A stretch of DNA of 64,000 nt from an uncultured Bacilli bacterium (GCA_934098665.1 CAKOOO010000002.1:20374-84373); one strand, 5' to 3'. Positions 6,605-62,286 are shown, counted from the stretch's first letter. Notes: generated from the sequence alone by a model not told the origin. Made by a program: numbers and translations.

Positions 6605-7091
6605 TATCATCTAAAGTATTATTATTTGATACTGAGTTATTTTTATTTGAGGTTGTAACAATAAAACTACATGTATATAGTTTATTTGTAAGTGCTCCAT
6701 CACCAATATCTGTGCAAGTAATATCTTCGATTTTAGCACCTTTTATAGTCCATGTTTTTTTAATTTCACCTTTTACTTTATATTGAAATTTATATACATC
6801 TTTATCATTTTCTTTTACTGTATAATAAGAAATTTCATAAGTATTTTCGCCTGTTAAAGTAAGAGTTTTACCGCTTATATTATAACTAGTTATATTATCA
6901 CAAATTAAATCATCTTCGATAGTAGTAACAATATCAATACGGTTTGCTTGATTAGAATTTGCTATAAAATCATTATTTCTTTCAAAAGTTACACTAGAAA
7001 GTAAGTTATATAAAAACAGTAAAACAACTGATATTAAAGCAACACTTACAATAAGTTCAACCATTGTCATACCTTTATTATTTAGTTTCAT
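6573..7091 (-). CDS. type IV pilin-like pseudopilin (prepilin N-terminal cleavage/methylation motif)
   Basis: MKLNNKG|MTMVELIVSVAL is a class III signal peptide with Glu at +5. The ATG overlaps the upstream stop codon (ATGA), so M4 of the track ORF was chosen as the start. Confidence 0.75.
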   Translation of the reverse strand: MKLNNKGMTMVELIVSVALISVVLLFLYNLLSSVTFERNNDFIANSNQANRIDIVTTIEDDLICDNITSYNISGKTLTLTGENTYEISYYTVKENDKDVYKFQYKVKGEIKKTWTIKGAKIEDITCTDIGDGALTNKLYTCSFIVTTSNKNNSVSNNNTLDDIILTFANKVE

Positions 7092-8041
7092 TTTATACAT
7101 TTACCTCCAATAGTTTTTTCTGTAAAAACATAAGGATTATTAATTGTTCCCTCACCTATAAATAAAGCATCAGCACTTATATTAATTACAGGTTTAACCT
7201 TTGAATTTGATGATACAAGCCTATCAGTACTTGACGAGCCATTTAAATAATATACATATGCACCACCACTATATCTTGAGGGACTCATTGTATATGTATT
7301 ACTTACCTGCCCCGTTAAAAGGCTTTCCTCTATTGTTGGAAGTCCTATATTTAAATTTAATGTATCTAAAGTATTATCACAAGAAAAACTTTGAATATTA
7401 TTTTTATTTATACCGTAGCTATAAAAATACTGCGTTGTAGTTCCATAGCCGTCCGCTAAATTATTATTTCCCTTACTTGGGGTTAAATATGCAATGCGGT
7501 TAGAGCAATAATTTTCATATTTAATATATTTTTCATATTTAGTACCAGAAAAGTTAGTATTATACCAATCATCTAAAAATATTTTTACAGTGCTATCATT
7601 TAATAAACCATTACCATTTTTATTTGAGTATTTAAATCCTACATAAACGGCATCATTACTAATGCTATTAAACATGCTAGATAAATCTTCACCATTATAA
7701 ATAAGTCTAAAACTACCATCACTATTTTTTAAAAGTACTTTCCAAGTAATATCTTTACCTATATTATTTCCAGTTTGATATTTACCAAACTTAACATAAA
7801 TAGGCTCTTTATAATAAGTAATACCTGATAAAGTGCCTTTATTTTTATTATCTAAATTTAATGGACTACTTCCAACACTTTCTGTAACAAAATAAGATTT
7901 TTTTAAATCGTTTTTTATTAATTTAAAATTTAAACGATTATTTGAATAAGTAGTCATGATTAAAACAAGTAGCATGCAAAATACTAGAAAAAATGAATAA
8001 ATCATTGAAATTGAAATTACACCTTTTTTATCTTTAATCAT
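7088..8041 (-). CDS. minor pseudopilin carrying the lectin-like module shared with the large surface-protein family
   Basis: MIKDKKG|VISISMIY leader-like N-terminus without E5. Internal WKVLLKN..FRLIYNG, YVGFKY and DDWYN motifs, and C-terminal KVKPVINIS...GEGTINNPYVF, parallel those of the four large paralogs. Confidence 0.6.
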   Translation of the reverse strand: MIKDKKGVISISMIYSFFLVFCMLLVLIMTTYSNNRLNFKLIKNDLKKSYFVTESVGSSPLNLDNKNKGTLSGITYYKEPIYVKFGKYQTGNNIGKDITWKVLLKNSDGSFRLIYNGEDLSSMFNSISNDAVYVGFKYSNKNGNGLLNDSTVKIFLDDWYNTNFSGTKYEKYIKYENYCSNRIAYLTPSKGNNNLADGYGTTTQYFYSYGINKNNIQSFSCDNTLDTLNLNIGLPTIEESLLTGQVSNTYTMSPSRYSGGAYVYYLNGSSSTDRLVSSNSKVKPVINISADALFIGEGTINNPYVFTEKTIGGKCIK

Positions 8042-8873
8042 AATACACCCACGATAGATAATATGCATTTTCACACGCCATTGAATAGCTTATATCATCC
8101 TGATTATAATAATCATTTAATTTATTTTCACAACCATTAAGGTTACCTTCACATACTTTATTTTGAATACATGATTTATAACCACCTTTTACTAAACCAG
8201 AGTTTTCATCCCCATTTTTCTTTTCATAATATAAAGCAATTAATATTCCATTACCATTTGCATCATTTTTATTTAAAGTAAGCATAAACTCCCTTAAATT
8301 ACTATCAGAGTATTTTTCAGTATAATCTTTAAAATTAATGCACTTATTTTTTAAACTTTCATCAGTAAAACCCTCTACATCTTCATTAACACATTTTTTT
8401 ATATTAGATATATCTTCGGTTTTAAGATATATAAGCATTTTAAATTTATAAAGCTTATTTGCATTATTTATATATGAATTATCATTAAATATTGATATAT
8501 AATTTTCCGCAGAACAGAAAAGTTTTCCATCACTATCCTTTTCATATTTGGTGCAAAATTTTGACTCTGTATTAAATAAATAAACAAAATTATATTTAAG
8601 GGAGTTTTTATTAATATCTTTATCAAGTGCATCCCCACCATCATAATTATTACCATTACGAGCATTGTCAAAAACGCTTGTATTAGCACTTTCAATTACT
8701 GCATCACGAATATATAAAGTTTTATAAATATATGATATATCATCATAATAAAGTCTTTTTCTTTCATCTAAAACTCTTTTACTAAAATTTGAATACAAAA
8801 AAATAAGAGTTGTAGTTAAAACAACAGTAACAATAATTGTTTCTATAAATACAAAACCCTTATTATTTTTCAT
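8034..8873 (-). CDS. type IV pilin-like pseudopilin
   Basis: MKNNKG|FVFIETIIVTVVL prepilin motif with E5. First gene of an overlapping three-gene operon. Confidence 0.7.
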   Translation of the reverse strand: MKNNKGFVFIETIIVTVVLTTTLIFLYSNFSKRVLDERKRLYYDDISYIYKTLYIRDAVIESANTSVFDNARNGNNYDGGDALDKDINKNSLKYNFVYLFNTESKFCTKYEKDSDGKLFCSAENYISIFNDNSYINNANKLYKFKMLIYLKTEDISNIKKCVNEDVEGFTDESLKNKCINFKDYTEKYSDSNLREFMLTLNKNDANGNGILIALYYEKKNGDENSGLVKGGYKSCIQNKVCEGNLNGCENKLNDYYNQDDISYSMACENAYYLSWVYYD

Positions 8874-8881
8874 ATCACACC

Positions 8882-8925
8882 TACTATAACAATTATAAAC
8901 TAAAAATAGTCTAATTTCAATAATT
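8882..8925 (-). promoter_or_regulatory. promoter cassette copy a (TTGAAA-17-TATAAT) in front of the pseudopilin operon
   Basis: On the minus strand the -35 TTGAAA lies at 8915-8920 and the -10 TATAAT at 8892-8897, with a 17-nt spacer. The same ~45-nt block recurs at 10597 and 13001. Confidence 0.55.
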
Positions 8926-10583
8926 TAATAAATCATAGGAACTTTACTATTTTCGATGGCTTCCATTTTTTCTTTTTCATATAATAAATCAAGATATACA
9001 CGATAATATTTTTTAAACAAATTTTCTAGATAAGTAGTTATTTCTTTTCCTGATGAAAATATTGAATAATCTATTCCATTAAATGTATAAGATGGATCTA
9101 AAAGAAGTATTTCTTTTTTTATTTTATCTATTTCCTTTAGTAAATTATTTATATATTTAGTATAAATATTTTCTTGAGTTTTATCCATTTGCTCTAAAGT
9201 TTTATTATTTATAGTACTTATCACATCTATTTTTGATACATTACCACTTACTTTTATTAAAATTGGCATTAAATATTTTCTAAAAGTTTTAATAAAACTA
9301 TTTGCATCATTATAATCAAGTGTTTTTTTACCATATAAATAATCAATTACATTTTGCCTTTCACTCATTAAATAAACTATTATTTCTTTTTTAGTATCTT
9401 CATCATTACTATATTTTAAAATGTCAACAAGTTTTTCTAAATCACTAATAATTTCATAATTTGAACTAACCTTTTCACCTCTTAATGTTTTAATCATATT
9501 TTGAATTAAATTCATAATATCATAGTAATTTCCATTTTTTTCATAAATTTGATTTAAACTACTTTTTAAATTTTCTAAACTTATAATTGCATTTGTATAT
9601 AAAGTATTATTTGTATTTAATGAAAGAGTATCATAACTACTAAATAAACCATTATTATACGTGCTAACTATAGCATCAACTTTTTGTTTTACTTCGTTTT
9701 TATTTATTCCTATAAAGTCAATACTTGTTACTTCTTTTGCTAAAGATAATATTTTTTTAGCTTCACTTGTTAATTTATCTGAAAAAAGATTATTATCATT
9801 TACATTAGTATTTTCATAACTTTTTTCTCTAACTACAGTAAACTCTTTTTTAATAGGAAAACTTGGAAACAAACTAGTTATTAATTCATCACTAATTACT
9901 GGACCTTTTAAAGTAAAACTTTTTACATATAAAGTTGAAAGTATTCTTTTGCTATCAAGATATTCCTTTACTGGTTTACAGTTTCTAGCATCATCAAACT
10001 TATATAAATTATGTTTATAGATAAAATCTATTGAACCATATTTATTATAACTTTTTTCATTTTTTTCAAGCTTTGAATATATTAAATTAAAAAATCTATT
10101 TATATCATTAACAAATTTAATTAATTCTTTTTCATTATTATAAGTTAACGTAAAATTAGAGCCCGCAAAAAGGTTCAAACAACGATTATCACCACTTAAA
10201 TAAAGTCTTGAGAAAAGGTCAAAATCACAAGGAATTGTAATATTATTTATTGGTCTTAAACTTCTAAAAGCATATTCATAAACCTTATTTGTTTTATTAT
10301 GAACAGTTAAACTATTAATTTTAACATCATAAAAACAAAATCCATAACTATCTATTTCTAAATTAGTGCCATCTAAATCAATATCTAAATTCATATCCCC
10401 TGTAACACGTTTATCTAATATTATTTCCCCACATGCATAACTGCATACTCTTCTATATCCACTATGAAGAGTAATTTTATAATTCTCATTTTTAAGTAGT
10501 CTTTGCAAGCTATAAGGCACCCTAAAAGATTTAACATCACCATAGTCATTTACAATTTCTAAATTAATAATATTTTCTTCCAT
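8925..10583 (-). CDS. hypothetical cytoplasmic protein, paralog of 10648-12987
   Basis: 552 aa with no signal peptide. The C-terminal ~450 aa are colinear with the neighbouring gene (for example ...ILLLDPSYTFNGIDYS.FSSGKEI..YLENL.KKYYRVYLDLLYEKEKME). Confidence 0.7.
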   Translation of the reverse strand: MEENIINLEIVNDYGDVKSFRVPYSLQRLLKNENYKITLHSGYRRVCSYACGEIILDKRVTGDMNLDIDLDGTNLEIDSYGFCFYDVKINSLTVHNKTNKVYEYAFRSLRPINNITIPCDFDLFSRLYLSGDNRCLNLFAGSNFTLTYNNEKELIKFVNDINRFFNLIYSKLEKNEKSYNKYGSIDFIYKHNLYKFDDARNCKPVKEYLDSKRILSTLYVKSFTLKGPVISDELITSLFPSFPIKKEFTVVREKSYENTNVNDNNLFSDKLTSEAKKILSLAKEVTSIDFIGINKNEVKQKVDAIVSTYNNGLFSSYDTLSLNTNNTLYTNAIISLENLKSSLNQIYEKNGNYYDIMNLIQNMIKTLRGEKVSSNYEIISDLEKLVDILKYSNDEDTKKEIIVYLMSERQNVIDYLYGKKTLDYNDANSFIKTFRKYLMPILIKVSGNVSKIDVISTINNKTLEQMDKTQENIYTKYINNLLKEIDKIKKEILLLDPSYTFNGIDYSIFSSGKEITTYLENLFKKYYRVYLDLLYEKEKMEAIENSKVPMIY

Positions 10584-10647: not shown

Positions 10648-12987
10648 TCATTTAATCAAAGGTACTTTACTATTTTCAAGAGTTTCCATTTTTTCTTTTT
10701 CATATAATAAATCAAGATATACACGATAATATTTTTTATATAAATTTTCTAAATAATCTATTATTTCTTTTCCTGATGAAAATAATGAATAATCTATTCC
10801 ATTAAATGTATAAGATGGATCTAAAAGAAGTATTTCTTTTTTTATTTTATCTATTTCACTTAATAACATTTTAATATAACTATTTGTATTTTCTTTTGTT
10901 TTATTATTCATTTCATTTAAGGCATAATTTTTTATATTATCAAGTACATCTATTTTTGATACATTACCACTTACTTTTGTAAGAATAGGAACTAAATAAA
11001 TCCTAAACTTTCTTATAAAACTATTTATATCATTATAATCTATTTCTTTTTTACCACATAAATAATCTATTATATTTTGTTTTTCACTTTCTAAATAAGA
11101 AATAATTTCATTTTTTGTTGTATCATCTTTACTATATTTTAAAATATTTGCTAAAGTATCTAAATCTTTTAAAATTTCATAGTTGGGTTTTACTTCTTCG
11201 CCATTTAGTTTTTTAATCATATTTTCAATTAAATCTAATATATCATAGTAACCAATTTTTTCTTCAAAATTATGATATAAAGTATCTTTATAGTTTTCTA
11301 ATTTTAAAATAGTATTTGTATAAAGCATATTATTTGAGCTTAATGATAAACCTTCACTCACTTTTAAATTACTATTATACTCTAATATAATCTCATTTAC
11401 ATCTTGTTTAACTTGGTTTTTATCAATACCAATATATTCAATGCTCATTATCTCTCTTACTAAATCAAGTATATGCTGTGCCTCTTTTGTAAGTGTTTGA
11501 TTATCACTAATATTTTCTTTCTTTTCAGTTTTATTTATAAAATTAAATTTAACCCAATTATGCTTTTCAAAAAATGATAAAGCTTTTTTTGTATTTATTT
11601 TAGGACCCTCAAAAGTAATATGTGTTGCCCCAATTTTATTAAATAAACTATCATAATTAGCACCATATGATAAGAAATCACAATATGAAAATTTATATAG
11701 TTCATGTTTATAAATAAAATCGATTTTATTATTTGAATATTTGTAATTAATGGCGTTTTTATAATAATTATCTGAAATTTTTGTAAATAAATCTGTAATT
11801 CTTTGTACGTCTTTCAAAAAAGATATAAGTTCTTTTTCACTTGTATAACTAATAGTTAAATATGCTCTACGAAATAAATTACTAGCCGTTTTATTCCCAC
11901 TTAAATAAAGACTTGTAAATAACTTAAAATCACATGGCATTTTAATACTATAAGCACCCCTATATGAATATTTATCTTTTTTACAAAAAACATTATCCTC
12001 TAAAGAAATGGTTTTGGCATTAATATTTATACTTTCAAATATAACATCCATATCTGAAGAAGAAAAATCAAAAGCATGTGATGAAATAAATACATCATCA
12101 CCCTCTATATTAATATTTACCGTAGCTTTTTCTTTAAAAGAATTTTTAAATAACTCTGAAGATGCATTACTAGAAATTACTTTAGCATTTGAAATATTTA
12201 TATCATATTCTTTTTCATCAAGTGAATATAGCTTTCCGTTACTATCCATTACAATTTCACCTTCATAAGGAAGATAAAAACTATTTATTTCATCATATAA
12301 AGTTTCATTGCAAATTTCAATCTTACCAAATATACTATTAATTTTATCATCTAAAATTTCGTTTAGAAAATATTGATTTAAAAAATTATAGCCTTCATAT
12401 TCAAAATCACTAGCTAAAGTATCTGTATAAAAACCTGCAATAATATCTTTACATATTAAAATATTTTTTTCACTATCTTTTTTCCATATAAGTGGTTTTA
12501 CTTTTACAAAAACCTTTACATCATCGCCATTATTTCTCATCCAAAAATAAGCATATTTTTCCCCATTATAAGTAAAAGTTGGAGCTCTTTTCACTTCATC
12601 ATTTACAGGTATGTGATACTCAAAATCCCAACATTTCGAAGCATCTTTTAGTTTGCTAATAAGATGCTTATCATAAATAATTTTGCTCGGATAAAACCCA
12701 AGAGGATATTCATCATTATCTAAATATTTTATAGAGTTTTCTTTTAAAAAAGATTCAATAAAGCCAGTTGTTCTAATAACAGGTCTTATTCCATAATATT
12801 TTTCATCTTTGCCCTTTTCATAAGAAGTTTTTTCTTTTTTACTTACTAAATTTTCACTTATAAAAAAAGTATTATTTTCGCCATAAATATATTTCGTTAA
12901 ATCATTTTGAGTAGCACCATCTTTAAAAGGCTCATCACTAGTTAAAAATGTTACATAAACTCTTTTTTTAATTGCAAAATCATCCAT
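10648..12987 (-). CDS. hypothetical cytoplasmic protein, longer paralog with an extra N-terminal domain
   Basis: 779 aa. The N-terminal ~230 aa contain YYGIRPVIRT and KPLIWKKD, reminiscent of the GVRPVISL module of the surface family. The rest parallels 8925-10583. Confidence 0.7.
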   Translation of the reverse strand: MDDFAIKKRVYVTFLTSDEPFKDGATQNDLTKYIYGENNTFFISENLVSKKEKTSYEKGKDEKYYGIRPVIRTTGFIESFLKENSIKYLDNDEYPLGFYPSKIIYDKHLISKLKDASKCWDFEYHIPVNDEVKRAPTFTYNGEKYAYFWMRNNGDDVKVFVKVKPLIWKKDSEKNILICKDIIAGFYTDTLASDFEYEGYNFLNQYFLNEILDDKINSIFGKIEICNETLYDEINSFYLPYEGEIVMDSNGKLYSLDEKEYDINISNAKVISSNASSELFKNSFKEKATVNINIEGDDVFISSHAFDFSSSDMDVIFESININAKTISLEDNVFCKKDKYSYRGAYSIKMPCDFKLFTSLYLSGNKTASNLFRRAYLTISYTSEKELISFLKDVQRITDLFTKISDNYYKNAINYKYSNNKIDFIYKHELYKFSYCDFLSYGANYDSLFNKIGATHITFEGPKINTKKALSFFEKHNWVKFNFINKTEKKENISDNQTLTKEAQHILDLVREIMSIEYIGIDKNQVKQDVNEIILEYNSNLKVSEGLSLSSNNMLYTNTILKLENYKDTLYHNFEEKIGYYDILDLIENMIKKLNGEEVKPNYEILKDLDTLANILKYSKDDTTKNEIISYLESEKQNIIDYLCGKKEIDYNDINSFIRKFRIYLVPILTKVSGNVSKIDVLDNIKNYALNEMNNKTKENTNSYIKMLLSEIDKIKKEILLLDPSYTFNGIDYSLFSSGKEIIDYLENLYKKYYRVYLDLLYEKEKMETLENSKVPLIK

Positions 12988-14759: not shown

Positions 14760-15203
14760 CTATTTATTTTTACTATCTATCATAATAGTTATAGGCCCAT
14801 CATTATTAATATTAACTAGCATTTCTTCGCCAAAAATACCAGTTTGCACCTGTACATGATTTTCAAGTTTTTGAATAAATCTTTCATATAAAGGTTTTGC
14901 TATATCTTTTTTGGCAGCATTTACATAACTTGGTCTATTACCTTTTTTAGTATCGGCCATTAATGTAAACTGACTTATAAGAAGAACTTTACCACTCGTA
15001 TCAAGTATGCTTTTATTCATAACACCTTTTTCATCATCAAAAATACGTAAACTAACTATTTTATTTACTAAATAATCAATGTCTTTTTCATCATCACTAT
15101 AAGTAATTCCAAGAAAAACCACAAGTCCAAAGGGAATTTGACCTACTACATCGCCTTTTACTTTAACACACGAATTTTTACTTCTTTGAATTAATACTTT
15201 CAT
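14760..15203 (-). CDS. dtd: D-aminoacyl-tRNA deacylase
   Basis: 147 aa. MKVLIQR...SQFTLMADTKKGNRPS. Sits downstream of rel, as in Bacillus. Confidence 0.9.
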   Translation of the reverse strand: MKVLIQRSKNSCVKVKGDVVGQIPFGLVVFLGITYSDDEKDIDYLVNKIVSLRIFDDEKGVMNKSILDTSGKVLLISQFTLMADTKKGNRPSYVNAAKKDIAKPLYERFIQKLENHVQVQTGIFGEEMLVNINNDGPITIMIDSKNK

Positions 15204-17567: not shown

Positions 17568-19238
17568 TTATATTTTTAAAGCATTATTATTTATTTTAGA
17601 ATTTAAAAAACTATCTATTTTAAGAGAACTTTCATGTAAAAATAAATAAAAATCATATATAGTTACACTTATTTTGAAATTTAATTTATCTTCATAAATA
17701 TCTTCGAAAATAATTAATGAATTATTTATTGAGTTATCAAGATTAATTTTATAATTTCCATGAGCAATACTATTTCTTATTCCTTCGATTAATTTTTCTT
17801 TTTTAATTAAATCAACATTATTATTAATATACATTGTAGCATTAAATAAATCATTATTAACACTACCTAAATCATTATTAAGAATTATTATTTTAGAATT
17901 AATAGTATTTATTGTAAGATTAATTTTATTTTCAGCATCCTTTATTCCCTTTGACTTAACTATATTTAAATTATTTTGACAACTTACAAGAGAATTATTA
18001 AGTTTAATAAGCTCTTTATTTATTGCATCTTTTCTCATTACTAAATCATTTAAAAAATTATCATAGTTTTTTTCAATTTCAATATTAAATTTTGAAAAGT
18101 CAAGCAAACTATAATCAAAACCATTACTAGGATAGTTTTTATATTCAAAATCATTTTTATATACATCATCAAAACCATATGAAAAAAGTGCATTAAATGA
18201 GTTAATTAAAGAACTTGATAAATTATCATAATTAAGCATCATTTGACCATATTTATTATACACATATTTAAAAATAATATCTTTATTAACACTATCAGTA
18301 TTTTTTATAGACTCAAGGATAATAAGATTTCTTGTATTAGAATTAACTAAATTAAATTTAGAAAATTTTTCAGGATTACATAACCTTTCTACTTCATATC
18401 CTGTTATCCCAAGAGCAATTTTATATGGAATATTTGGCTGAATAGAATTGCTTAAAAATACCGCTAAAGAATTTACATCAATTATTTTACTTACATTTTT
18501 TTCAGTCCATGATAAAGTATAATAATCACTTATTTCTTTTTCAAAATTAACAAGTATTTTTTTATCTTTTTTTTCTTTATACTCAGCCCATACATTTTCT
18601 AGTTTTTTAGATATATACCCCTCGATATTTTTACCATCTTTTCTTTTTATAGTAATTTCATTTAATTTATAAGATTTAATAAAACTTTCATAATCTTTTA
18701 CACTATATTTTTCTTTATCTTTACCATTATTTAGGTTTGAACAAACAAAACTTTTTTTTAATTCATTTTGATTATAATTTTTAATACTTGAGGATAATGA
18801 AGATATAACGAATCTAGCAAGTTTTTGAATATTTATTACTAAATCACTTCCATTAACTTTTAGAATAATGCGATCATGATTTAGATCAAGAAGATACTCT
18901 CCATGAGCAAGTTTATTTCGAAGTGTTACCACAAGTTCATATTCATTTACAAAATGATAGTTATTTATATAGTAACCATTTTCATCTTTTAAAGCTATTA
19001 AACTAACATTTTTTTCAAGTTCTTTTTCATTTATTAAAAAATTACCACCTTTATCTACAATATTTTCTTTTGTACTTAAAAATATAGTTGATATAGCTCC
19101 AACCATTGCTCCACTTATATATTTTTTATCTAAAATTTCATTAATATATCTTGGGTCATTACAAAATAAACCCATTAAAAATAAATTATAGGCATAATTA
19201 GCACAAAAATAATCTATTATATAATTTTCTTTATTCAT
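17568..19238 (-). CDS. tandem-HEPN protein (two Rx4H motifs), putative RNase/defense effector
   Basis: RNKLAHGEY is encoded at 18903-18920 and RNSIAHGNY at 17760-17777, about 380 aa apart, with a coiled-coil-like N-rich segment before the second motif. Confidence 0.6.
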   Translation of the reverse strand: MNKENYIIDYFCANYAYNLFLMGLFCNDPRYINEILDKKYISGAMVGAISTIFLSTKENIVDKGGNFLINEKELEKNVSLIALKDENGYYINNYHFVNEYELVVTLRNKLAHGEYLLDLNHDRIILKVNGSDLVINIQKLARFVISSLSSSIKNYNQNELKKSFVCSNLNNGKDKEKYSVKDYESFIKSYKLNEITIKRKDGKNIEGYISKKLENVWAEYKEKKDKKILVNFEKEISDYYTLSWTEKNVSKIIDVNSLAVFLSNSIQPNIPYKIALGITGYEVERLCNPEKFSKFNLVNSNTRNLIILESIKNTDSVNKDIIFKYVYNKYGQMMLNYDNLSSSLINSFNALFSYGFDDVYKNDFEYKNYPSNGFDYSLLDFSKFNIEIEKNYDNFLNDLVMRKDAINKELIKLNNSLVSCQNNLNIVKSKGIKDAENKINLTINTINSKIIILNNDLGSVNNDLFNATMYINNNVDLIKKEKLIEGIRNSIAHGNYKINLDNSINNSLIIFEDIYEDKLNFKISVTIYDFYLFLHESSLKIDSFLNSKINNNALKI

Positions 19239-19249
19239 TTTTACCTCTA

Positions 19250-19675
19250 TTATTTTAAATATCTTTTATTTATTTTATTTTTAATAATTTTTATTAAAGA
19301 AAGTACATATGATCCTAAAAGAAAAAGTATTATAATAAGCATAATATAACCATCTTTCTTATTTAAAATAGAGTAAACCCAATAAATTAAAAATGCTATT
19401 AAACATGAAAGAATATAAACTGAAAATATGAACTTTAAATTAGAAAAAAATTTATCACTAGCTTTCTCATTATAAATAGAAATTATAAAGGCAAATACCA
19501 TATAAGTTACAAGTAATAAAACACCTGTTACAAAAATAAAAATAAATTTTACAATGCCTTTGAAAGAAATAAAAGACATAAAAAGTTTATATATACCAAA
19601 AAACATTAAAAACATAATAATTATTAAAATTAAAGTTAAAATTATTTTAAATATCTTCTTTATCATAAACATCAA
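19250..19675 (-). CDS. small four-TM membrane protein
   Basis: 141 aa, strongly hydrophobic. Lies 11 nt upstream of the HEPN gene. Confidence 0.55.
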   Translation of the reverse strand: MMFMIKKIFKIILTLILIIIMFLMFFGIYKLFMSFISFKGIVKFIFIFVTGVLLLVTYMVFAFIISIYNEKASDKFFSNLKFIFSVYILSCLIAFLIYWVYSILNKKDGYIMLIIILFLLGSYVLSLIKIIKNKINKRYLK

Positions 19676-19713
19676 TTATAGAATATCATAATTTATAAAC
19701 TAATTTCAATACA

Positions 19714-20235
19714 TTAATCATTTTTTAAAATTCTTTTTTCAATTTTTTCTTTATTAATTTTTTCAATATAAAAATATATAGTTCTTAAATTTATATAACT
19801 AGTTTTATATAAAACATTTAATATTCCCACTATATTTTTAGCATTTATATAAACTTTCATTTCATTAATTAACTTTTCATCTTTAACATATTTTAAAAAT
19901 ATATTATAAAATTTATTCATAATAATTTTATCATTAACATTTTCAATAAAAAATTCGTCAATAGATAAATTATCTTCTTTAGTAAGTACTTTAAATCTAA
20001 AATTTTTATCATTAATTATACATAATGAACCATTTAAAAAATTTTCAGGAAGTAAGTTATTTATTAAAATTAAATTCATAATTTCTTCATAAGTATATTT
20101 TTTAGTAAACATATCAATATTTTCAATACTGTTATATTGATATCCATATGTTTTTTCTAATATATTTATATCTATAGGCATAAACTCTTTAGGTCTTGCT
20201 TCCACCACTAGATAATATACTTCTTTTTTATCCAT
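19714..20235 (-). CDS. hypothetical protein, first gene of the HEPN operon
   Basis: Start moved to M18 of the track ORF, which has GGAAGTGA 4 nt upstream. No motif recognised. Confidence 0.5.
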   Translation of the reverse strand: MDKKEVYYLVVEARPKEFMPIDINILEKTYGYQYNSIENIDMFTKKYTYEEIMNLILINNLLPENFLNGSLCIINDKNFRFKVLTKEDNLSIDEFFIENVNDKIIMNKFYNIFLKYVKDEKLINEMKVYINAKNIVGILNVLYKTSYINLRTIYFYIEKINKEKIEKRILKND

Positions 20236-20263
20236 AAAATCACTTCCTTTTAGATAAGGTAAC

Positions 20264-20293
20264 ATCATATCATAATTTTTTACCATGTGTCAA
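20264..20293 (-). promoter_or_regulatory. candidate sigma-70-type promoter of the HEPN operon
   Basis: On the minus strand, TTGACA (20288-20293), an 18-nt spacer and TATGAT (20264-20269). Confidence 0.4.
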
Positions 20294-20301
20294 TAGAGCA
20301 T

Positions 20302-20329
20302 AAAAAAATGATGAAATATTTCATCATTT
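20302..20329 (-). terminator. rho-independent terminator of surface protein gene A
   Basis: Perfect palindrome aaatgatgaaa-ta-tttcatcattt followed by a U-run on the minus strand. Confidence 0.65.
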
Positions 20330-22739
20330 ATTCTACCACAAAAGGATTAGTATATGAGCCATCACCTGAAGATATTGTGGTGCCAGGTTTTAAAGATATC
20401 GATGGTCGCACACCCCGCACGTTGACCACGAGGTTGTTGTTCCACCCACCGGAGTCCACCGCCCCGACGGCGGCGTAGCCGTTACCGTTGAGGAAGCTGT
20501 TGGGAGAACCTAACAAAACATATTGTCCACTGTTAAAGTAATGACTACTTCCATAACCAGCTAAACTTAATTCTGGTACTGTTAATAATCCTATTGGATA
20601 TTTTAACCTTGCTTTTGCATTATTTACACTAAATCTATCTGTTTCATTTGCACATAATAAACTTTTATTACTTGTACTATTATTTTTAAAATATAAAACT
20701 TGACTACTTGTACTTCCGTTTGGATTCCAACCAGTTGAAGATAAATTAGTTATGGTTCTATCATTACAGAATACTGTATCTTCTAGTTTATTTGTATAAC
20801 TTGTCATATTGTTTTTATACCAATTATCTATATATGCTTTTATTGTACTATCATCAGTATTTACATCATCTGCATATAACATTTCATTTAAAGCGTCTTC
20901 TACTGATTTTCCTCCAGTTAAGGTTATGTAATATGAAGCACCATTACTAATATAATATACATAATAAATTGATGTACAACTATTACCATTTGTTAAGCAT
21001 GTATAATGATGGGTATTTACATTACTACTATTAGCAATAAATGTATCTGAATTTATTGTTACTGTATCGCTTAATGTATATGTCCCATTTGTATATGTAA
21101 ATGATGAGCCAAATACATAATCTTGATTTGCTAATGTTGTTCCATCTGTTACTCCTCCAGATAGCGAGTAATAATATATTATTGTTCCACTATTTGAAAC
21201 TATATAATAGGGATTAGAACAAGATGTTGATGTGCTATTACATGTATATCTTCCAGATAATGTACTTGATGAAGACACTGTTATATTACTAGGGTTTACT
21301 AAATTGTAAGTACCATTATCATATGTTACACCAGTGCCAATTACTTTTGTACCAACTAAATTTACACGATTAATTATTTTCTTAGATGAATATGCATATA
21401 CTTTATTTTCATTATACATATATCCTACATATGCTGGTGAATTATATTTACTATTAAATGCACTTGTTCCTATTATTGTATCTGTTCCTGTATTATTACA
21501 TGATTTTATTACATCTCCTACTGCTTTGCCAATACTAAATACTACATTATCATTATTTTTTGATACACTACTATCTTTAGAATATTTTACGGTAATAACA
21601 TCTGAAGTTGTAAGACCTTTAAGAGCAATTGTTCCTGAATCTGTAAACTTACCAAGTGATGTGGTACCATTTATAAATTCAGCTTTATCACAGCATGTTT
21701 CTGATGATACAGAGTAATTTAAATAATAATCTCCAGCTTCTTTTACACTAAATGTTATTGTTCCCGTTTTACCATGGTCATGATTTGTACTTGTCCATGT
21801 TTTAATTGTTTCATCAAATGTATATGGATATGTAGCATCATTTGTTACATTTATATATTCATCTTGATTAATAGGTTCTGTATTGACTATATCTTTTACA
21901 GCACCATTATAAACAATTTTTACTCCACCTGTATCTGTGGTTCTTACTATTTTCCAGCATTTATCTGCAAATAGTACATTATTATTTTCTACATTGCCAG
22001 TATAGTAATATACTTTATTTGCATATTTTGTTGTATCTTCATAATCACTTCCATTATATAGTTTTACATACTCATCACCATTTAAATATTTTCTTGCAAT
22101 TATAGAGTATAAATTCTTTGCATATTCCTTAAAATCACAATCTATATTTTCTACTTTAATATTACCACCAAAGGTTTTACCTATTATAGAGTTATCTTGA
22201 GCTATATTTAGATTATAGTATCTTAAATTAAAGTTCCATGTTTCACTTATACTTGTTTGTGATGTTGTTGTTTCTATTGAACCAGAATAAATTTTTATTT
22301 TACTGCTTCCTGCTAAAGAAACATCGTTAAAACTATTACCTTGATTAGAGATTCCTCTTACAGCATATTCTTTTAAAGTGCTTTGTGATGGTGTATAAGA
22401 AGTGCTTGGAACGTATACTATATCATAAGAACAATATACTGGGGCATCACCTTTTGCATCAAGTGTTAAAGTTAAATTTGAATTACTTTCTACATATGAA
22501 GTATAATCATTTGACGCACTCCCCACATCTAAATCACTTTCATTTATTGCTAATGCTACATTTTGATTTCCACTTGTATTAAATGTATAAAACTTTGTAT
22601 CTATCCTTGAGGTTGCATTATTATTTGTATTTATTTTCATGCTACCAAAAAATGCATAAGATGCACTTACTAATATAATAAGAGCTATTACTGATGCTAT
22701 TATAGTTAATATTTTCTTCTTATTATCACTTTTTTCCAT
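20328..22739 (-). CDS. large surface protein A of the lectin-like paralog family (carries GC-rich variable island)
   Basis: N-terminal signal-anchor KKKILTIIASVIALIILVSASYAFFG. Family motifs CWKIVRTTDTGGVKIVYNG, PAYVGYMYNE, IDNWY, FCNDR, YPIGLLTVPE and GVRPSISLKPG...GDGSYTNPFVVE. Start set at the ATG at 22739, after GAAAGG. Confidence 0.8.
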   Translation of the reverse strand: MEKSDNKKKILTIIASVIALIILVSASYAFFGSMKINTNNNATSRIDTKFYTFNTSGNQNVALAINESDLDVGSASNDYTSYVESNSNLTLTLDAKGDAPVYCSYDIVYVPSTSYTPSQSTLKEYAVRGISNQGNSFNDVSLAGSSKIKIYSGSIETTTSQTSISETWNFNLRYYNLNIAQDNSIIGKTFGGNIKVENIDCDFKEYAKNLYSIIARKYLNGDEYVKLYNGSDYEDTTKYANKVYYYTGNVENNNVLFADKCWKIVRTTDTGGVKIVYNGAVKDIVNTEPINQDEYINVTNDATYPYTFDETIKTWTSTNHDHGKTGTITFSVKEAGDYYLNYSVSSETCCDKAEFINGTTSLGKFTDSGTIALKGLTTSDVITVKYSKDSSVSKNNDNVVFSIGKAVGDVIKSCNNTGTDTIIGTSAFNSKYNSPAYVGYMYNENKVYAYSSKKIINRVNLVGTKVIGTGVTYDNGTYNLVNPSNITVSSSSTLSGRYTCNSTSTSCSNPYYIVSNSGTIIYYYSLSGGVTDGTTLANQDYVFGSSFTYTNGTYTLSDTVTINSDTFIANSSNVNTHHYTCLTNGNSCTSIYYVYYISNGASYYITLTGGKSVEDALNEMLYADDVNTDDSTIKAYIDNWYKNNMTSYTNKLEDTVFCNDRTITNLSSTGWNPNGSTSSQVLYFKNNSTSNKSLLCANETDRFSVNNAKARLKYPIGLLTVPELSLAGYGSSHYFNSGQYVLLGSPNSFLNGNGYAAVGAVDSGGWNNNLVVNVRGVRPSISLKPGTTISSGDGSYTNPFVVE
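20404..20510 (-). other. candidate DGR variable region (VR-A)
   Basis: 107 nt at about 65% G+C (hand count) inside a ~25% G+C gene. It encodes GSP-NSFLNGNGYAAVGAVDSGGWNNNLVVNVRG-VRP. Confidence 0.5.
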
Positions 22740-22764
22740 AACAAACCTTTCTATTATCAATTAA

Positions 22765-27695: not shown

Positions 27696-29486
27696 TTAGC
27701 TCTCTACTACATATGGATTATTATAAGTTCCATCACCGGAAAGTTTAACATCTTTTGAAAGTGAAATAACTGGTCTAACACCTAATATCATACTATCCTC
27801 GTTATTTACCGTTTTTTCATAAAAGGAAAAACTTAAGCCAAAAACCATAGCGGCTCCTTCATCGTTAGCAACATCTGGTGATCCAATTAAAATGCCATCT
27901 GTATCTTCAACTGTATAATAAAATAAATAAAATGCTCGATTTTCTTTTCCAGATCCAGATACTGCACCAGCCATTGCTACTTCGTCTGCGGTTATTAAGC
28001 CTACTGGATAAGTTAATGCACCATTTCCACTACTTGAACCTACTGTAAATTTATCACTTGCATTAGGACATGTTAGAACTGGCTTTTTATTTGCGACTAG
28101 TCTTCCATATGCTCCATAATAAATAAACTCATTATTTGATGTAAATGGGTTTATCTCACCATAATCACCATTTTCACTTCGTGAAGCACTTCTATCATAG
28201 CAAAATGGACTATCAGCTATTAATTTTGACGTGCTCTCATCAGTATAAAGCGAAGTTGTTGTATACCAATTATCAATATAAGTTTTTATTGCACTATCAT
28301 TTGTAAGACCATGTTGCTTACCTATTTCATATTTATATCCTACATATTCTGGTTTGTATACATTAGTGTTAAAATCACTTTTTCCAATATATATATTATC
28401 ATTTAGCATTACTACCTTTTGATCTTCGGTTGGAGCTGTTGTACCAGAATAAATCATTCGTACACTGCCATCACCATTTATTCTTATTATTCGCCAGTAT
28501 ATATCGTCACCTATATTCCACAAATATGAACAGTTATAGTTATAGGAACTAGAAGAATTACATTCTTCTAGAGAAGTATATTTTTTATATGATGAAGAAC
28601 TGGCTGAATAATATCCACGTACTGGACCATTAGATGAATATTTTCCAAACTTTATCCAGTTATTATCTACCGCACCTCTAAAATAGTAAGATGTTCCTTG
28701 GTCGTCTTTAGCTGCATACATGCCATCATTTGTTGTTGCCACTGCTGTAAAATCAGGACTTTCTTTTGTTTCAATTGCATTAGCACCACCATTTTTTGCA
28801 AGTATAATATCTTTGGCTTTTGGCACTTCTCCAACATTGCAATTATTATTTTCTACATATATTTTACCTGTAAATGATTTATTACCTAGTTGTGCTTGGT
28901 CTACATTCAAATTATAATATCTACCTGTTATATTTATATTTTGCACTACACTTGTACCTTCACTTGTTATTGTAGCATTTTTTACAAGGGTTTTCTTTGC
29001 TCCAACAGTTGTTGTCTTCGGTGTCCAAGTGCTATCATAAGCAAAATTTGTTTCACTTGCAAAGCTATTTGTTCCACTTGGACTAGAAACCTCTAAAGTA
29101 ATTTCTTTAGTTGCTCCATTTGTTACTGCAACAGTGCTTCCATATATTTCACTAGAAAGATCATATTCATACACTACATCATATGTACATGTTGTTATTA
29201 CATCTGGTACTCCAGTAAGATTTACTGTAAGTGTAGCGGTATTTTCGGCAGCTAGTCCAGTATTACCCTTAAACATTCCACTTGTAGGTACTATTACATT
29301 TAAATTTGCACTTGTTGCTATAAATGAAGTATCTCCTATTGTACTTGCATGAATATTTACTGCTACCTTATTTTCAAGATTTACTGTAAACATACCAAAA
29401 TATGCAAACGATGCACTAATTAAAAGCACTAAAAGAAACATTCCAGATATTATCCAACCTATATTTACTTTCTTTTTATTTTTCAT
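27696..29486 (-). CDS. surface protein D of the lectin-like paralog family
   Basis: N-terminal anchor GWIISGMFLLVLLISASFAYFG. YWRIIRINGDGSVRMIYSG, PEYVGYKYE, IDNWY, FCYDR, YPVGLITADE and GVRPVISLS...GDGTYNNPYVVE. Confidence 0.8.
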   Translation of the reverse strand: MKNKKKVNIGWIISGMFLLVLLISASFAYFGMFTVNLENKVAVNIHASTIGDTSFIATSANLNVIVPTSGMFKGNTGLAAENTATLTVNLTGVPDVITTCTYDVVYEYDLSSEIYGSTVAVTNGATKEITLEVSSPSGTNSFASETNFAYDSTWTPKTTTVGAKKTLVKNATITSEGTSVVQNINITGRYYNLNVDQAQLGNKSFTGKIYVENNNCNVGEVPKAKDIILAKNGGANAIETKESPDFTAVATTNDGMYAAKDDQGTSYYFRGAVDNNWIKFGKYSSNGPVRGYYSASSSSYKKYTSLEECNSSSSYNYNCSYLWNIGDDIYWRIIRINGDGSVRMIYSGTTAPTEDQKVVMLNDNIYIGKSDFNTNVYKPEYVGYKYEIGKQHGLTNDSAIKTYIDNWYTTTSLYTDESTSKLIADSPFCYDRSASRSENGDYGEINPFTSNNEFIYYGAYGRLVANKKPVLTCPNASDKFTVGSSSGNGALTYPVGLITADEVAMAGAVSGSGKENRAFYLFYYTVEDTDGILIGSPDVANDEGAAMVFGLSFSFYEKTVNNEDSMILGVRPVISLSKDVKLSGDGTYNNPYVVES

Positions 29487-40675: not shown

Positions 40676-41953
40676 TTACTTTTTTTTTACACATATTTTT
40701 ATTCCCACAAAAAGCAAAAGAGTTACAAGTATTATTAAATATTTATAAGGAAATGAAAATGTATTTTCAAATGTAATATCCTTTATATTATTTTCACTAT
40801 CTATATCATCATTATTAAAAATATCATTACTAATAAGTTCATTATTAATATTTTTTAAATTACCATTTTCTTCATTATTATCATTATCAATATTTTCATT
40901 ATTATCATTTTCTAAATTACCATTTTCATCATTATTAATATTTTCATTATTTTCTTCATTTTGAATAACCTTTTTATTTAACTTTAATTTAATTAAAGAG
41001 TCATTTATATTAACATTTTCATTAAAGTCTTCATAAATATCATCACCCTTTATAAAGATATTATAAGTTCCTTCAAATAATTTAAGATTTATCATCCCAT
41101 TTTCATTAGAGCAATATTTTTCATCATTAATATTTATACATTTATTTACAAGCTTATCTTCATCATAAACTAAAATACTTGTGCTTGTTTTATCACCATT
41201 TATTTCCATTACATACTTTTTATCGTTAAAATTAGTAGTTGAAAAAAGTGTATTACTACCATTTGTAACTAAAAATTCAAAAAGTGGTTCTGCTATAGGA
41301 AGTACTTTTTTTCGAAAAACAAGTTTATGCTTACCCTCTTTTCCTTTAACAGTTAATTTATCATTTATAATATTTACTTCAAGGTTATCTTCATTATCAT
41401 ATAAATAAAAATTATCTAAATAATCAAACTGAAATTCTTTTATTTCACCTGGCTCTATATTAACTGTGTTATTCCAAAATGAAGGACCTTTTATAACTGA
41501 AAAATATTTATCTTTTATTTTCTGATAAAAATCTTCGTAAATTTCATATTTTTCTTTAGTATTTGGATAGCAAAAATAAAACTCTTTTTCTGGATATAAA
41601 TATTCCCATATAAGTCTTTGAGTTAAAGAGTGATATACTCTTTCATCAACGTTTAATTTATCCCTTATTTCCATAAAGGCAAAATATAAATCTTTTATAT
41701 CTTTGGAATAATTACTTTTTTCATAAGTAATTTTTTTATAATTTTCTACATTTGTATCAAGCATATCTCTTGTTTGGGGTACTAAAAAAAATGTTTCTCT
41801 ATGTTCAAGCCAAACATAAGTAAGTTCATACATATTTCCATCACTTGAACATAAATTTTGATGAGTTGTATTTATTAAACTTGACACACTTATAGCGTGC
41901 ACATTTTTAGATAAAGTAAACAATATAGCCAAAAATATTAAATATTTTTTCAC
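40676..41953 (-). CDS. secreted surface protein with a sorting-signal-like C-terminus and an N/D/E-rich spacer
   Basis: Signal peptide MKKYLIFLAILFTLSKNVHA (GTG start after GAAAGGAAA). C-terminal hydrophobic stretch plus a KKK tail. TQRLIW resembles the Gln motif of thioester-domain adhesins (weak). Confidence 0.65.
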   Translation of the reverse strand: MKKYLIFLAILFTLSKNVHAISVSSLINTTHQNLCSSDGNMYELTYVWLEHRETFFLVPQTRDMLDTNVENYKKITYEKSNYSKDIKDLYFAFMEIRDKLNVDERVYHSLTQRLIWEYLYPEKEFYFCYPNTKEKYEIYEDFYQKIKDKYFSVIKGPSFWNNTVNIEPGEIKEFQFDYLDNFYLYDNEDNLEVNIINDKLTVKGKEGKHKLVFRKKVLPIAEPLFEFLVTNGSNTLFSTTNFNDKKYVMEINGDKTSTSILVYDEDKLVNKCININDEKYCSNENGMINLKLFEGTYNIFIKGDDIYEDFNENVNINDSLIKLKLNKKVIQNEENNENINNDENGNLENDNNENIDNDNNEENGNLKNINNELISNDIFNNDDIDSENNIKDITFENTFSFPYKYLIILVTLLLFVGIKICVKKK

Positions 41954-42031
41954 TATTATTTTCCTTTCTATATTTCCTATCACCAAATATAAAAAGTTTT
42001 TACGAGCAATTTAAATATAACAAAATATTTT

Positions 42032-42585: not shown

Positions 42586-42612
42586 AAAAAAAATGATAGA
42601 TTACCTATCATT
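42586..42612 (-). terminator. rho-independent terminator of surface protein gene C
   Basis: aaugauag-guaau-cuaucauu hairpin plus a U-run on the minus strand. Confidence 0.6.
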
Positions 42613-44731: not shown

Positions 44732-44778
44732 ATACTCCACTTTTTCTCCGTAAATACGGCATATAATTTTCTTATATT

Positions 44779-62028: not shown

Positions 62029-62104
62029 TGGTGTCCTGTTGGAGATTCGAACTCCAGACCCTTTGATTAAAAGTCAAATGCTCTACCGACTGAGCTAACA
62101 GGAC
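62029..62104 (-). tRNA. tRNA-Lys (anticodon UUU)
   Basis: A 76-nt cloverleaf was folded by hand. Acceptor gtcctgt/acaggac, anticodon loop cuUUUaa, TPsiC ggagttcgaatctcc, and an encoded CCA. Confidence 0.85.
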
Positions 62105-62116
62105 AAAATATTGAAA

Positions 62117-62192
62117 TGGCTGCCTCGGATGGATTCGAACCATCGGAATGTCAGAGTCAAAGTCTGATGCCTTGCCACTTGGCTACGAGGCA
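62117..62192 (-). tRNA. tRNA-Gln (anticodon UUG)
   Basis: Acceptor tgcctcg/cgaggca (U1-A72, as in bacterial tRNA-Gln), anticodon stem tcaga/tctga with loop cuUUGac, and an encoded CCA. Ends are accurate to within 1 nt. Confidence 0.8.
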
Positions 62193-62202
62193 ATATTTGA
62201 AA

Positions 62203-62286
62203 TGGTGGAAGGAGATGGATTTGAACCATCGAACCCGAAGGAACAGATTTACAGTCTGCCGCGTTTGGCCACTTCGCTATCCTTCC
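62203..62286 (-). tRNA. tRNA-Tyr (anticodon GUA), class II with a long variable arm
   Basis: 84 nt. Acceptor ggaagga/tccttcc, anticodon loop cuGUAaa, a long variable arm, and an encoded CCA. Confidence 0.85.

Follow-up and report, generated by a model that had tools for sequence, protein, structure and literature searches.

A chromosomal protein family with two HEPN modules in one chain, predicted to be a guide-independent ribonuclease of uncultured gut Bacilli

A 64,000-nucleotide (nt) stretch of DNA from an uncultured Bacilli bacterium (GCA_934098665.1, CAKOOO010000002.1:20374-84373; this whole stretch is hereafter the window) encodes a protein of 556 amino acids (aa) that carries two RNxxAHG motifs of the HEPN type in a single chain. 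On balance, we lean towards interpreting it as a guide-independent, single-chain double-HEPN ribonuclease (RNase), a chromosomal and toxin-like enzyme that would serve in defence or in stress and dormancy. Both motifs are conserved across the protein's family, the modules that bear them are homologous to each other and akin to known HEPN proteins, and the gene evolves fast. The family itself is new, and so are its restriction to one uncultured gut lineage and its architecture, in which a middle domain and a coiled coil accompany two modules of the pEK499_p136 kind; the HEPN superfamily and the toxin and defence functions of its members were already known, as was the notion of a chain with two HEPN domains. 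We found no description of a double-HEPN family of this kind in the literature searched.

Two conserved motifs in one polypeptide

Region 17568-20293 of the window holds three open reading frames (ORFs), all on the minus strand according to our ORF listing. The gene in question and its motifs are placed as follows:

17568-19238, minus strand: gene for the 556-aa single-chain double-HEPN protein (ORF; 585 homologs; AlphaFold2 model)
18903-18920, minus strand: Rx4H motif 1, R107-N-K-L-A-H112 followed by G113 (R 98%, H 97%, G 97% conserved)
17760-17777, minus strand: Rx4H motif 2, R488-N-S-I-A-H493 followed by G494 (R 99%, N 95%, H 98%, G 95% conserved)

The nine-residue strings RNKLAHGEY and RNSIAHGNY extend to nt 18894 and 17751, respectively. 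The two RNxxAHG motifs exceed chance expectation: with 9 Arg and 5 His in total, the protein contains two Rx4H sequences, both of them the HEPN motifs; at least two arise in 0.2% of 200,000 shuffles of the protein; and RNxxAHG occurs twice across the six frames of the window, each time in this chain.

In a collection of 5.8 billion proteins, 585 homologs were found, and the exhaustive search gave 187 clusters at 50% identity; nearly all are 540-600 aa long and matched over their full length, and none is named. We aligned 101 members with 19-47% identity to the 556-aa protein. Conservation in this alignment is highest at the two motifs, at K57/E58 and at a small number of hydrophobic residues; R107, H112, G113, R488, N489, H493 and G494 are each at least 95% conserved, K57 is 95% conserved, and E58, an acidic residue just past the second helix (38-55) of the model described below, is 93% conserved. 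The first-pass annotation of the window had reported RNKLAHG and RNSIAHG in one polypeptide; their coordinates proved exact, and R and H are intact in both motifs in 96 of the 101 members. Two members that are 21% identical to each other (P0138 and P0260) have lost the His of both motif 1 and motif 2, and none of the 98 members with an intact H112 has a damaged motif 2. Judging from the alignment, the two motifs have been lost together twice independently. This joint loss of the motif His in two distant members argues that the motifs work as one unit, and P0138 and P0260 look like inactivated derivatives kept at full length.

Domain architecture and structural model

An AlphaFold2 model built on the 101-sequence alignment is compact and very confident, with a predicted local distance difference test score (pLDDT) of 93.8 and a predicted template modelling score of 0.91. 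It divides the chain into four parts:

18774-19238, minus strand: HEPN module 1, residues 1-155 (helices 7-26 and 38-55, an insert, helix 99-111 ending in RNKLAH, three strands within 115-136 and helix 137-152 in the model)
18063-18773, minus strand: middle alpha/beta and helical domain, residues 156-392 (secondary structure of the model)
17817-18062, minus strand: long antiparallel coiled-coil hairpin, residues 393-474 (helices 394-430 and 433-473), leading into HEPN module 2
17571-17816, minus strand: core of HEPN module 2, residues 475-556 (helix 475-492 ending in RNSIAH, three strands within 496-526 and helix 527-555 in the model)

In the model, helices 99-111 and 475-492 terminate inside the motifs, with H-G opening the following loop, and each module has a three-stranded sheet inserted between the motif and its closing helix. 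A coiled coil ahead of motif 2, suggested in the first-pass annotation, is borne out by helices 394-430 and 433-473 and by the family profile, which matches keratin-type and other coiled coils at profile positions 402-478 (numbers of the profile, not of the window protein's residues). The middle domain, whose conserved residues include F348, Y354, D357, D375, L379 and D380, is in this model a candidate for sensing or for substrate binding; a Foldseek search with the whole model returned no PDB or BFVD match for it.

Homology of the modules and kinship with HEPN domains

Module 1 (residues 89-148) and module 2 (residues 470-538) match each other in hhalign with a probability of 93.8% (E=1.7e-7), whereas the middle domain, our negative control, reaches at most 1% against either; on the same figure we rejected a third, degenerate HEPN domain in that region. 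As the N- and C-terminal modules are homologous, the double layout arose by internal duplication.

Helix 3 of HEPN domains carries Rx4-6H at its end (PMC3710099), and the placement of the motifs in our model agrees; the conserved acidic E58 past the second helix also fits the HEPN description given there. Each motif is an Rx4-6H sequence with a polar residue after the Arg, and in both motifs the conservation of R, of N and of H reaches at least 89% (85-101 members). The three-strand insert after the motif is comparable to the beta-hairpin insert described for Csx1. A Pfam scan of 85 family members gave six matches to PF18736 (pEK499_p136, best 1.9e-6) and one to PF18737 (HEPN_MAE_28990, 2e-5); precomputed database matches to PF18736 are flagged as weak. 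The protein pEK499_p136 (166 aa, annotated "HEPN family nuclease") aligns to module 2 from the motif through strands one and two of the three that come after it (hidden Markov model E=7e-6 in a single comparison; hhalign E=5e-4 at 32% probability), matches module 1 more weakly and does not match the middle domain. Motif conservation, the position at a helix end, module homology and the HEPN matches of relatives in Pfam together uphold the earlier view of two HEPN-type modules in one chain, with no CRISPR.

Motif conservation also bears on whether the protein might be a catalytically silent HEPN scaffold, a regulator or adaptor in which RNxxAHG binds RNA or a nucleotide ligand without cleaving it. 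RNase activity of family members is a prediction, such a role would be in keeping with the coiled coil and with a large middle domain that is not HEPN, and non-catalytic, binding HEPN domains do exist (PMC3710099). These, however, typically lose Rx4-6H (PMC3710099), whereas the residues in question are kept here at the levels just given in both modules, and we regard a silent scaffold as very improbable.

Restriction to one uncultured lineage

When one genome per GTDB species was scanned by pattern, the single 556-aa protein as query gave nothing and the alignment as query gave 82 loci. The family occurs in at least 82 species, almost all of them titled uncultured Bacilli, uncultured Tenericutes, Mycoplasma sp. 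CAG:472, Clostridium sp. CAG:628 or Firmicutes bacterium CAG:460; we take these genomes to belong to the order RF39. A literature search for HEPN together with RF39 found no paper. All family loci have a guanine-plus-cytosine (GC) content of 22-29%. Occurrence in Bacteroidales or Clostridia was considered and rejected: the carrying contigs with Muribaculaceae, Paludibacteraceae or Clostridia labels are short and are probably mis-binned, since their GC content is 22-29%. Four such loci titled Paludibacteraceae or Muribaculaceae (L017, L046, L051 and L065) have 24-28% GC and the gene content of AT-rich Bacilli, and are probably mis-binned too.

Fast evolution, relocation and decay

Between the window and locus L014, identity is 84% for Def, 80% for FtsW and 60% for a 173-aa protein encoded upstream of the HEPN gene, against 39% for the HEPN protein. 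Within one synteny block shared by L001 and L014, it is 78% for an ATPase, 66% for a phosphodiesterase and 39% for the HEPN protein, and similarity of the four-transmembrane (four-TM) proteins encoded nearby is undetectable. The HEPN gene evolves about three times faster than its neighbours.

The location of the HEPN gene differs between genera, tandem paralogs are found at four loci (L021, L040, L048 and L049), and one assembly has two full copies; L060 is a decayed second copy. Comparison of the loci thus indicates a gene that moves between genera, forms tandem paralogs and sometimes decays. A fragmented copy at L070 was considered as a further case of decay and set aside; assembly error is likely, because the neighbouring genes are fragmented too.

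Comparison with known HEPN systems

The family resembles pEK499_p136 (PF18736; Anantharaman et al. 2013, PMC3710099) in having RN[SK]xAH followed by short strands and a closing helix, and in an occasional DNA methylase neighbourhood of the kind reported for the pEK499_p136 family. pEK499_p136, however, is a protein of 166 aa with one HEPN domain from an E. coli plasmid, whereas the 556-aa family has two modules, a middle domain and a coiled coil, is chromosomal and is found in AT-rich gut Bacilli only.

With Cas13 it shares two RNxxxH-type HEPN motifs far apart in one polypeptide, which implies a composite RNase site. It differs from Cas13 in its setting, and a Cas13-like CRISPR link was rejected: neither the window nor the 91 related loci contain a CRISPR array, there is no cas gene in them and no cas-like gene among the immediate neighbours, and there is no sign of a guide RNA. 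No Cas13 appeared when the 556-aa protein was compared with PDB sequences, PADLOC or NCBIfam, or in the top 50 fold matches, and most Cas13 proteins are larger than 556 aa. Because the two modules are recognisably homologous to each other, the duplication is internal and independent of Cas13.

AbiF/Abi_2 toxins offer a likeness of another kind, in that a toxin-like role is plausible for a HEPN RNase that stands apart from CRISPR. AbiF, reported to be the ancestor of Cas13, has one HEPN domain, forms a symmetric dimer and requires a cis-encoded non-coding RNA (PMC12737573). It differs from the 556-aa protein in that the PDB up to April 2026 contains no structural match to our model, and an AbiF-like RNA antitoxin was rejected as unlikely at the window locus, where there is no Rfam match and the flanking gaps of 11 and 60 nt leave no room for one. 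Abi_2 did not match the 556-aa protein or three relatives scanned singly, nor was it among the 25 most frequent families in the 85 members.

As with Csx27/Csx28 of the Cas13b systems, a small multi-TM protein is encoded beside a double-HEPN RNase, with a gap of 11 nt in the window; the link, however, is seen in only three related clades, the coupling is hypothetical, and the comparison is one of gene arrangement, not of sequence. RloC, PrrC, Las1, Ire1 and RNase L are regulated or housekeeping HEPN enzymes. They resemble the family in being HEPN RNases gated by extra domains (a coiled coil in RloC) and differ from it in having one HEPN domain per chain, in dimerising, and in carrying ATPase or kinase domains; Pfam and NCBIfam scans detected no ATPase or kinase domain in the 556-aa protein and its relatives.

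Proposed mechanism

We propose that the two pEK499_p136-like modules, products of internal duplication, pack against each other within one chain and that their two Arg/His pairs would form one composite, metal-independent RNase site, like that of the Cas13 HEPN pair or of a HEPN homodimer. The model's predicted template modelling score of 0.91 and the loss of both motifs together in two unrelated members lend this arrangement indirect support. Such a site would cleave single-stranded RNA and leave 2',3'-cyclic phosphate ends, and neither a guide RNA nor a CRISPR array would take part. Since HEPN RNases are toxic when unrestrained, this one is most likely kept inactive until a signal, sensed by the middle domain or the coiled coil, would switch it on. 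In the clade of the window it may act jointly with the four-TM protein.

We favour a toxin-like role in defence or stress because the gene evolves fast, relocates, forms paralogs and decays, and because of the general behaviour of HEPN proteins that keep their motifs. Some loci also have conflict-type neighbours, namely a Dam-type methylase, amidoligases and a reverse transcriptase. If this is right, the family would be a compact, guide-free RNase of 556 aa with two fused HEPN domains, evolved independently of Cas13, and the single-chain HEPN pseudo-dimer would have arisen more than once. It would also provide a new architecture, modelled with confidence, in which the middle domain lacks any structural relative, and a handle on the RNA biology or immunity of prevalent uncultured bacteria of the human gut. 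Its importance is tempered by how familiar HEPN proteins already are, as toxins and in defence, and by an activity, trigger and phenotype that remain predicted.

A bolder form of the proposal, which we consider unlikely, is that the family represents a second, independent origin of the Cas13-type layout, in which internal duplication of a pEK499_p136-like module would have given two HEPN domains in one chain and a single RNase site that needs no guide RNA. The gene would be near-core and vertically inherited throughout an uncultured gut lineage, with the protein acting as a signal-gated switch for dormancy or RNA turnover that is possibly coupled to the membrane through the fast-evolving four-TM partner, and having a middle-domain fold that has no known relative.

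Evidence against a toxin-like HEPN enzyme, and the case for a resident RNase

Several results weigh against our favoured interpretation, some of them concerning the fold and others the genomic context. As to the fold, the 556-aa protein itself has no significant match in Pfam or NCBIfam, and its PADLOC match to RTasHEPN (E=0.003, residues 83-114) is below significance. Foldseek with the full model gave best matches of E=0.22 in the PDB (a coiled-coil toxin) and E=0.14 in BFVD (coiled-coil noise); none of the 50 best PDB matches is described as a HEPN protein, so that structural similarity to one was not found. PDB sequence searches with the 556-aa protein and with the family profile likewise returned coiled-coil noise only. 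Since small helical domains are hard for Foldseek, this failure weakens the case for HEPN without excluding the fold, and we accept membership of the superfamily on the evidence of motif, topology and profile.

As to the context, neighbour clustering in about 80 loci yielded no gene cluster common to more than 11 of them, neighbours vary by clade, and a universal partner gene was rejected. Housekeeping genes predominate among the 102 immediate neighbours at 62 non-redundant loci (uvrC, hrcA, alr, htrA, an S41 peptidase, corA, a sigma factor, gatC), and strong matches to defence families among them are isolated (one reverse transcriptase and a few models of candidate systems). No nucleotidyltransferase of the HEPN-MNT kind is present at the window locus or among the 25 most frequent families of the 102 neighbours, and family scans and Rfam found neither an antitoxin nor a non-coding RNA at the window locus. 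Searches of the IMG/VR viral contigs, of GenBank phages and of PLSDB plasmids found no relatives of the 556-aa protein, and carriage by mobile elements was rejected on this ground.

Within the species, we compared contigs that carry the window's exact ComN protein (10 listed of 22 read). A gene lies directly upstream of comN, in the same position, in all ten listed contigs; the 556-aa gene is complete in eight of these, and the four-TM and 173-aa genes are also present in seven. Three contigs end within the gene adjoining comN, one leaving a fragment of 516 aa, and such fragments were excluded from the comparison. Across 9 strains, the ratio of nonsynonymous to synonymous polymorphism (pN/pS) is 0.17 for the HEPN gene, 0.05 for rel and 0.31 for the four-TM gene, and the length of the HEPN protein is identical; from the ratio and the constant length we infer that its function is retained within the species. 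Neither enrichment of defence genes among these neighbours nor variation in presence or absence among the ten contigs was found. The idea that the gene occupies a typical defence-island position accordingly lacks support, given the mostly housekeeping flanks, the constant place upstream of comN and the lack of phage, plasmid or IMG/VR relatives.

Because the gene is fixed in the species, has housekeeping flanks and has no mobile carriers, a lineage-specific enzyme of RNA metabolism is a serious rival. It would be a housekeeping or regulatory RNase for resident RNA processing, decay or stress-linked turnover, inherited vertically in gut Bacilli with reduced genomes. The place upstream of comN and the constant 556 aa in all eight contigs with the whole gene speak for it, as do purifying selection within the species, the spread over at least 82 species of one lineage, flanks that are overwhelmingly housekeeping genes on the same strand, the synteny of ATPase, four-TM, phosphodiesterase and HEPN genes kept between two genera, absence from the phages, plasmids and viral contigs searched, and the absence of a terminator before comN-rel, which makes co-transcription with a stringent-response gene possible. 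A resident enzyme is harder to reconcile with a HEPN identity of 39% where neighbouring housekeeping genes keep 78-84%, with a position that shifts between genera, with paralogs in tandem, the presence of two copies in a genome and the decay of a copy, and with the loss of both catalytic motifs in two members. Moreover, we know of no housekeeping bacterial RNase of the HEPN type that could serve as a precedent. Taken together, we find a resident RNase plausible though rather unlikely.

Clade-specific neighbours

The toxin-like enzyme that we favour has different neighbours in different clades, some of which we record here. At L048 (1008 to about 7600) and L049 (2301-7616), tandem double-HEPN paralogs of 559 and 549 aa come before a pair of proteins, each about 570 aa long; the one scanned has an Amidoligase_2 domain, and the context looks like a conflict system. 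In one clade (L032, 7083-7943; also L022 and L039), a D12-class (Dam-like) N6-adenine DNA methyltransferase is encoded 45 nt upstream of the HEPN gene, echoing the restriction-modification linkage reported for HEPN genes of the pEK499_p136 type. A protein of about 246 aa is encoded directly upstream of the HEPN gene in seven loci (L029, 7268-8005; also L019, L025 and L044); its gene overlaps the HEPN start by 8-11 nt in L019, L025 and L029 and lies just upstream in L044 and other members of the cluster. By eye it has kinase-like motifs (a Gly-rich loop and an HxD..N loop), with no Pfam match. Recurrent contigs of about 6.2 kb were considered as a mobile island and rejected, since their boundaries simply fall in the intergenic region preceding the first four-TM gene and immediately ahead of dnaK.

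The transcription unit and the two upstream genes

Upstream of the 556-aa gene lie the following features:

19250-19675, minus strand: four-TM membrane protein, 141 aa from a TTG start or 140 aa from the ATG at 19672 (ORF and hydropathy)
19714-20235, minus strand: 173-aa conserved hypothetical protein (start shown by the ribosome-binding site and orthologs)
20264-20293, minus strand: promoter-like TTGACA-18-TATGAT with TG before the -10 element (11 of 12 matches, best of 32 sites in the region)
20301-20327, minus strand: AT-rich hairpin followed by a run of seven T, likely terminator of an 810-aa gene (about -11.6 kcal/mol with flanks)

The four-TM gene lies 11 nt upstream of the 556-aa gene. 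The ORF coordinates agree with the gap reported in the first-pass annotation, and a crude hydropathy scan recovers the four helices predicted there. The third ORF spans 19714-20286 (190 aa); its real start is the ATG at 20235, which gives 173 aa, is preceded by the ribosome-binding site AAAGGAAG and corresponds to the Met-Asp at which 22 of 22 orthologs begin. The unit had also been credited with its own promoter. The TTGACA-18-TATGAT sequence at 20293-20264 is indeed the best of its region; such sites are unenriched over shuffles (32 in the region against 35.6), and we therefore treat it as suggestive only. The hairpin and T-run at 20327-20301, which a GC-dependent terminator scan missed, likely set the transcription unit off from the 810-aa gene. 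At the other end, comN begins 60 nt downstream of the 556-aa gene; no terminator was found between the two, so the transcript may run on into comN-rel-dtd.

None of the three proteins matches a significant family in Pfam, NCBIfam or PADLOC; in PADLOC-DB 2.0, the four-TM and 173-aa proteins have no match and the 556-aa protein only the sub-threshold one to RTasHEPN. The 173-aa protein has orthologs (57-68% identity) encoded directly after ftsW in related genomes, where the HEPN gene is not adjacent or lies 6 kb away in another block. Its model has a pLDDT of 87.7, and Foldseek found no structural relative in the PDB. By this gene order, the 173-aa gene is a backbone gene, not an evolutionary partner of the HEPN gene, although the two are possibly co-transcribed.

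Four-TM genes accompany the HEPN gene in two further clades. The CAG:472-type clade has between one and three four-TM paralogs in tandem, with three at most of its loci; next come a 362-aa type I phosphodiesterase (PF01663, 4e-21) and then the HEPN gene, whose start is overlapped for 4 nt by the phosphodiesterase stop. The order in the third clade is four-TM (two short ORFs in one locus), phosphodiesterase, lipoprotein, HEPN. The window's four-TM protein has 33% identity over 97 aa with the CAG:472-type four-TM proteins (phmmer E=2e-6); in the 5.8-billion-protein database it matches same-species fragments only and is nearly an orphan. From these comparisons, the four-TM gene is a genuine but clade-specific and very fast-evolving neighbour of the HEPN gene. 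As side observations on the closest other clades, one to three tandem four-TM paralogs and a 362-370-aa type I phosphodiesterase (PF01663, with a faint PglZ match) precede the HEPN gene at L001 (5594-8004; also L008-L012) and L014 (5632-7247), and the phosphodiesterase has been lost from the position upstream of the HEPN gene in the lineage of the window.

The three-gene functional cassette proposed in the first-pass annotation lacks support in that form, given that the 173-aa gene follows ftsW without a HEPN neighbour and that the four-TM link exists only in three related clades. Whatever the role of the HEPN protein, the "three-gene defence cassette" resolves into one gene that stands alone and evolves fast, a neighbour for a membrane protein that is confined to certain clades, and a backbone gene that is unrelated.

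A narrower possibility, confined to the window's clade, is a two-component, membrane-coupled system in which the four-TM protein would act as immunity protein or antitoxin to the HEPN RNase, or as sensor or effector in the manner of Csx27/Csx28. It draws on the 11-nt gap in the window and on the four-TM gene upstream of HEPN genes in three clades, between which the HEPN proteins share only 39-48% identity; the four-TM genes show weak homology from clade to clade, reach three tandem copies in the CAG:472-type clade and are, with the HEPN gene, the fastest-evolving in their block. Most family members, however, have no four-TM neighbour, a phosphodiesterase gene separates the four-TM and HEPN genes in two of the three clades (with a lipoprotein gene as well in one), and the four-TM protein matches no family of defence or toxin immunity. 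Across the family, small multi-TM proteins stand at position -1 in 15% of cases against a background of 9%, a difference that is unconvincing because the loci are related, and a general link to small membrane proteins was rejected on these figures. We consider a two-component system distinctly improbable.

Other features of the window

The variable surface gene beside the HEPN locus encodes the 810-aa member of a set of large paralogous surface proteins on the minus strand (20328-22760, 50361-52487, 42611-44740, 27696-29486 and 7088-8074, encoding 810, 708, 709, 596 and 328 aa, respectively). These are 27-63% identical to each other, and a membrane anchor is present at the N terminus of the 810-aa member. 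Proteins encoded at similar places in related genomes have a weak match to the prepilin N_methyl family and no significant similarity to the 810-aa protein. Two adjacent genes, also on the minus strand (8925-10583 and 10648-12987), encode paralogs of 552 and 779 aa that are 47% identical over 570 aa and share the same C-terminal tail, with no Pfam family on record.

The dtd gene (14760-15203, D-aminoacyl-tRNA deacylase) is much more diverse within the species than its neighbours, with a synonymous polymorphism (pS) of 0.077, a minimum amino acid identity of 0.91 and a pN/pS of 0.32; recombination from a different lineage is a possible cause of this diversity. An otherwise unannotated 436-aa ORF (40676-41986) contains, at 40789-40954, a coding tandem repeat of about 2-11 copies, its periods being 15, 24 and 57 nt. 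A tRNA cluster, Lys(UUU)-Gln(UUG)-Tyr(GUA), on the minus strand at 62029-62286 provides the sole Rfam matches at gathering score in the window.

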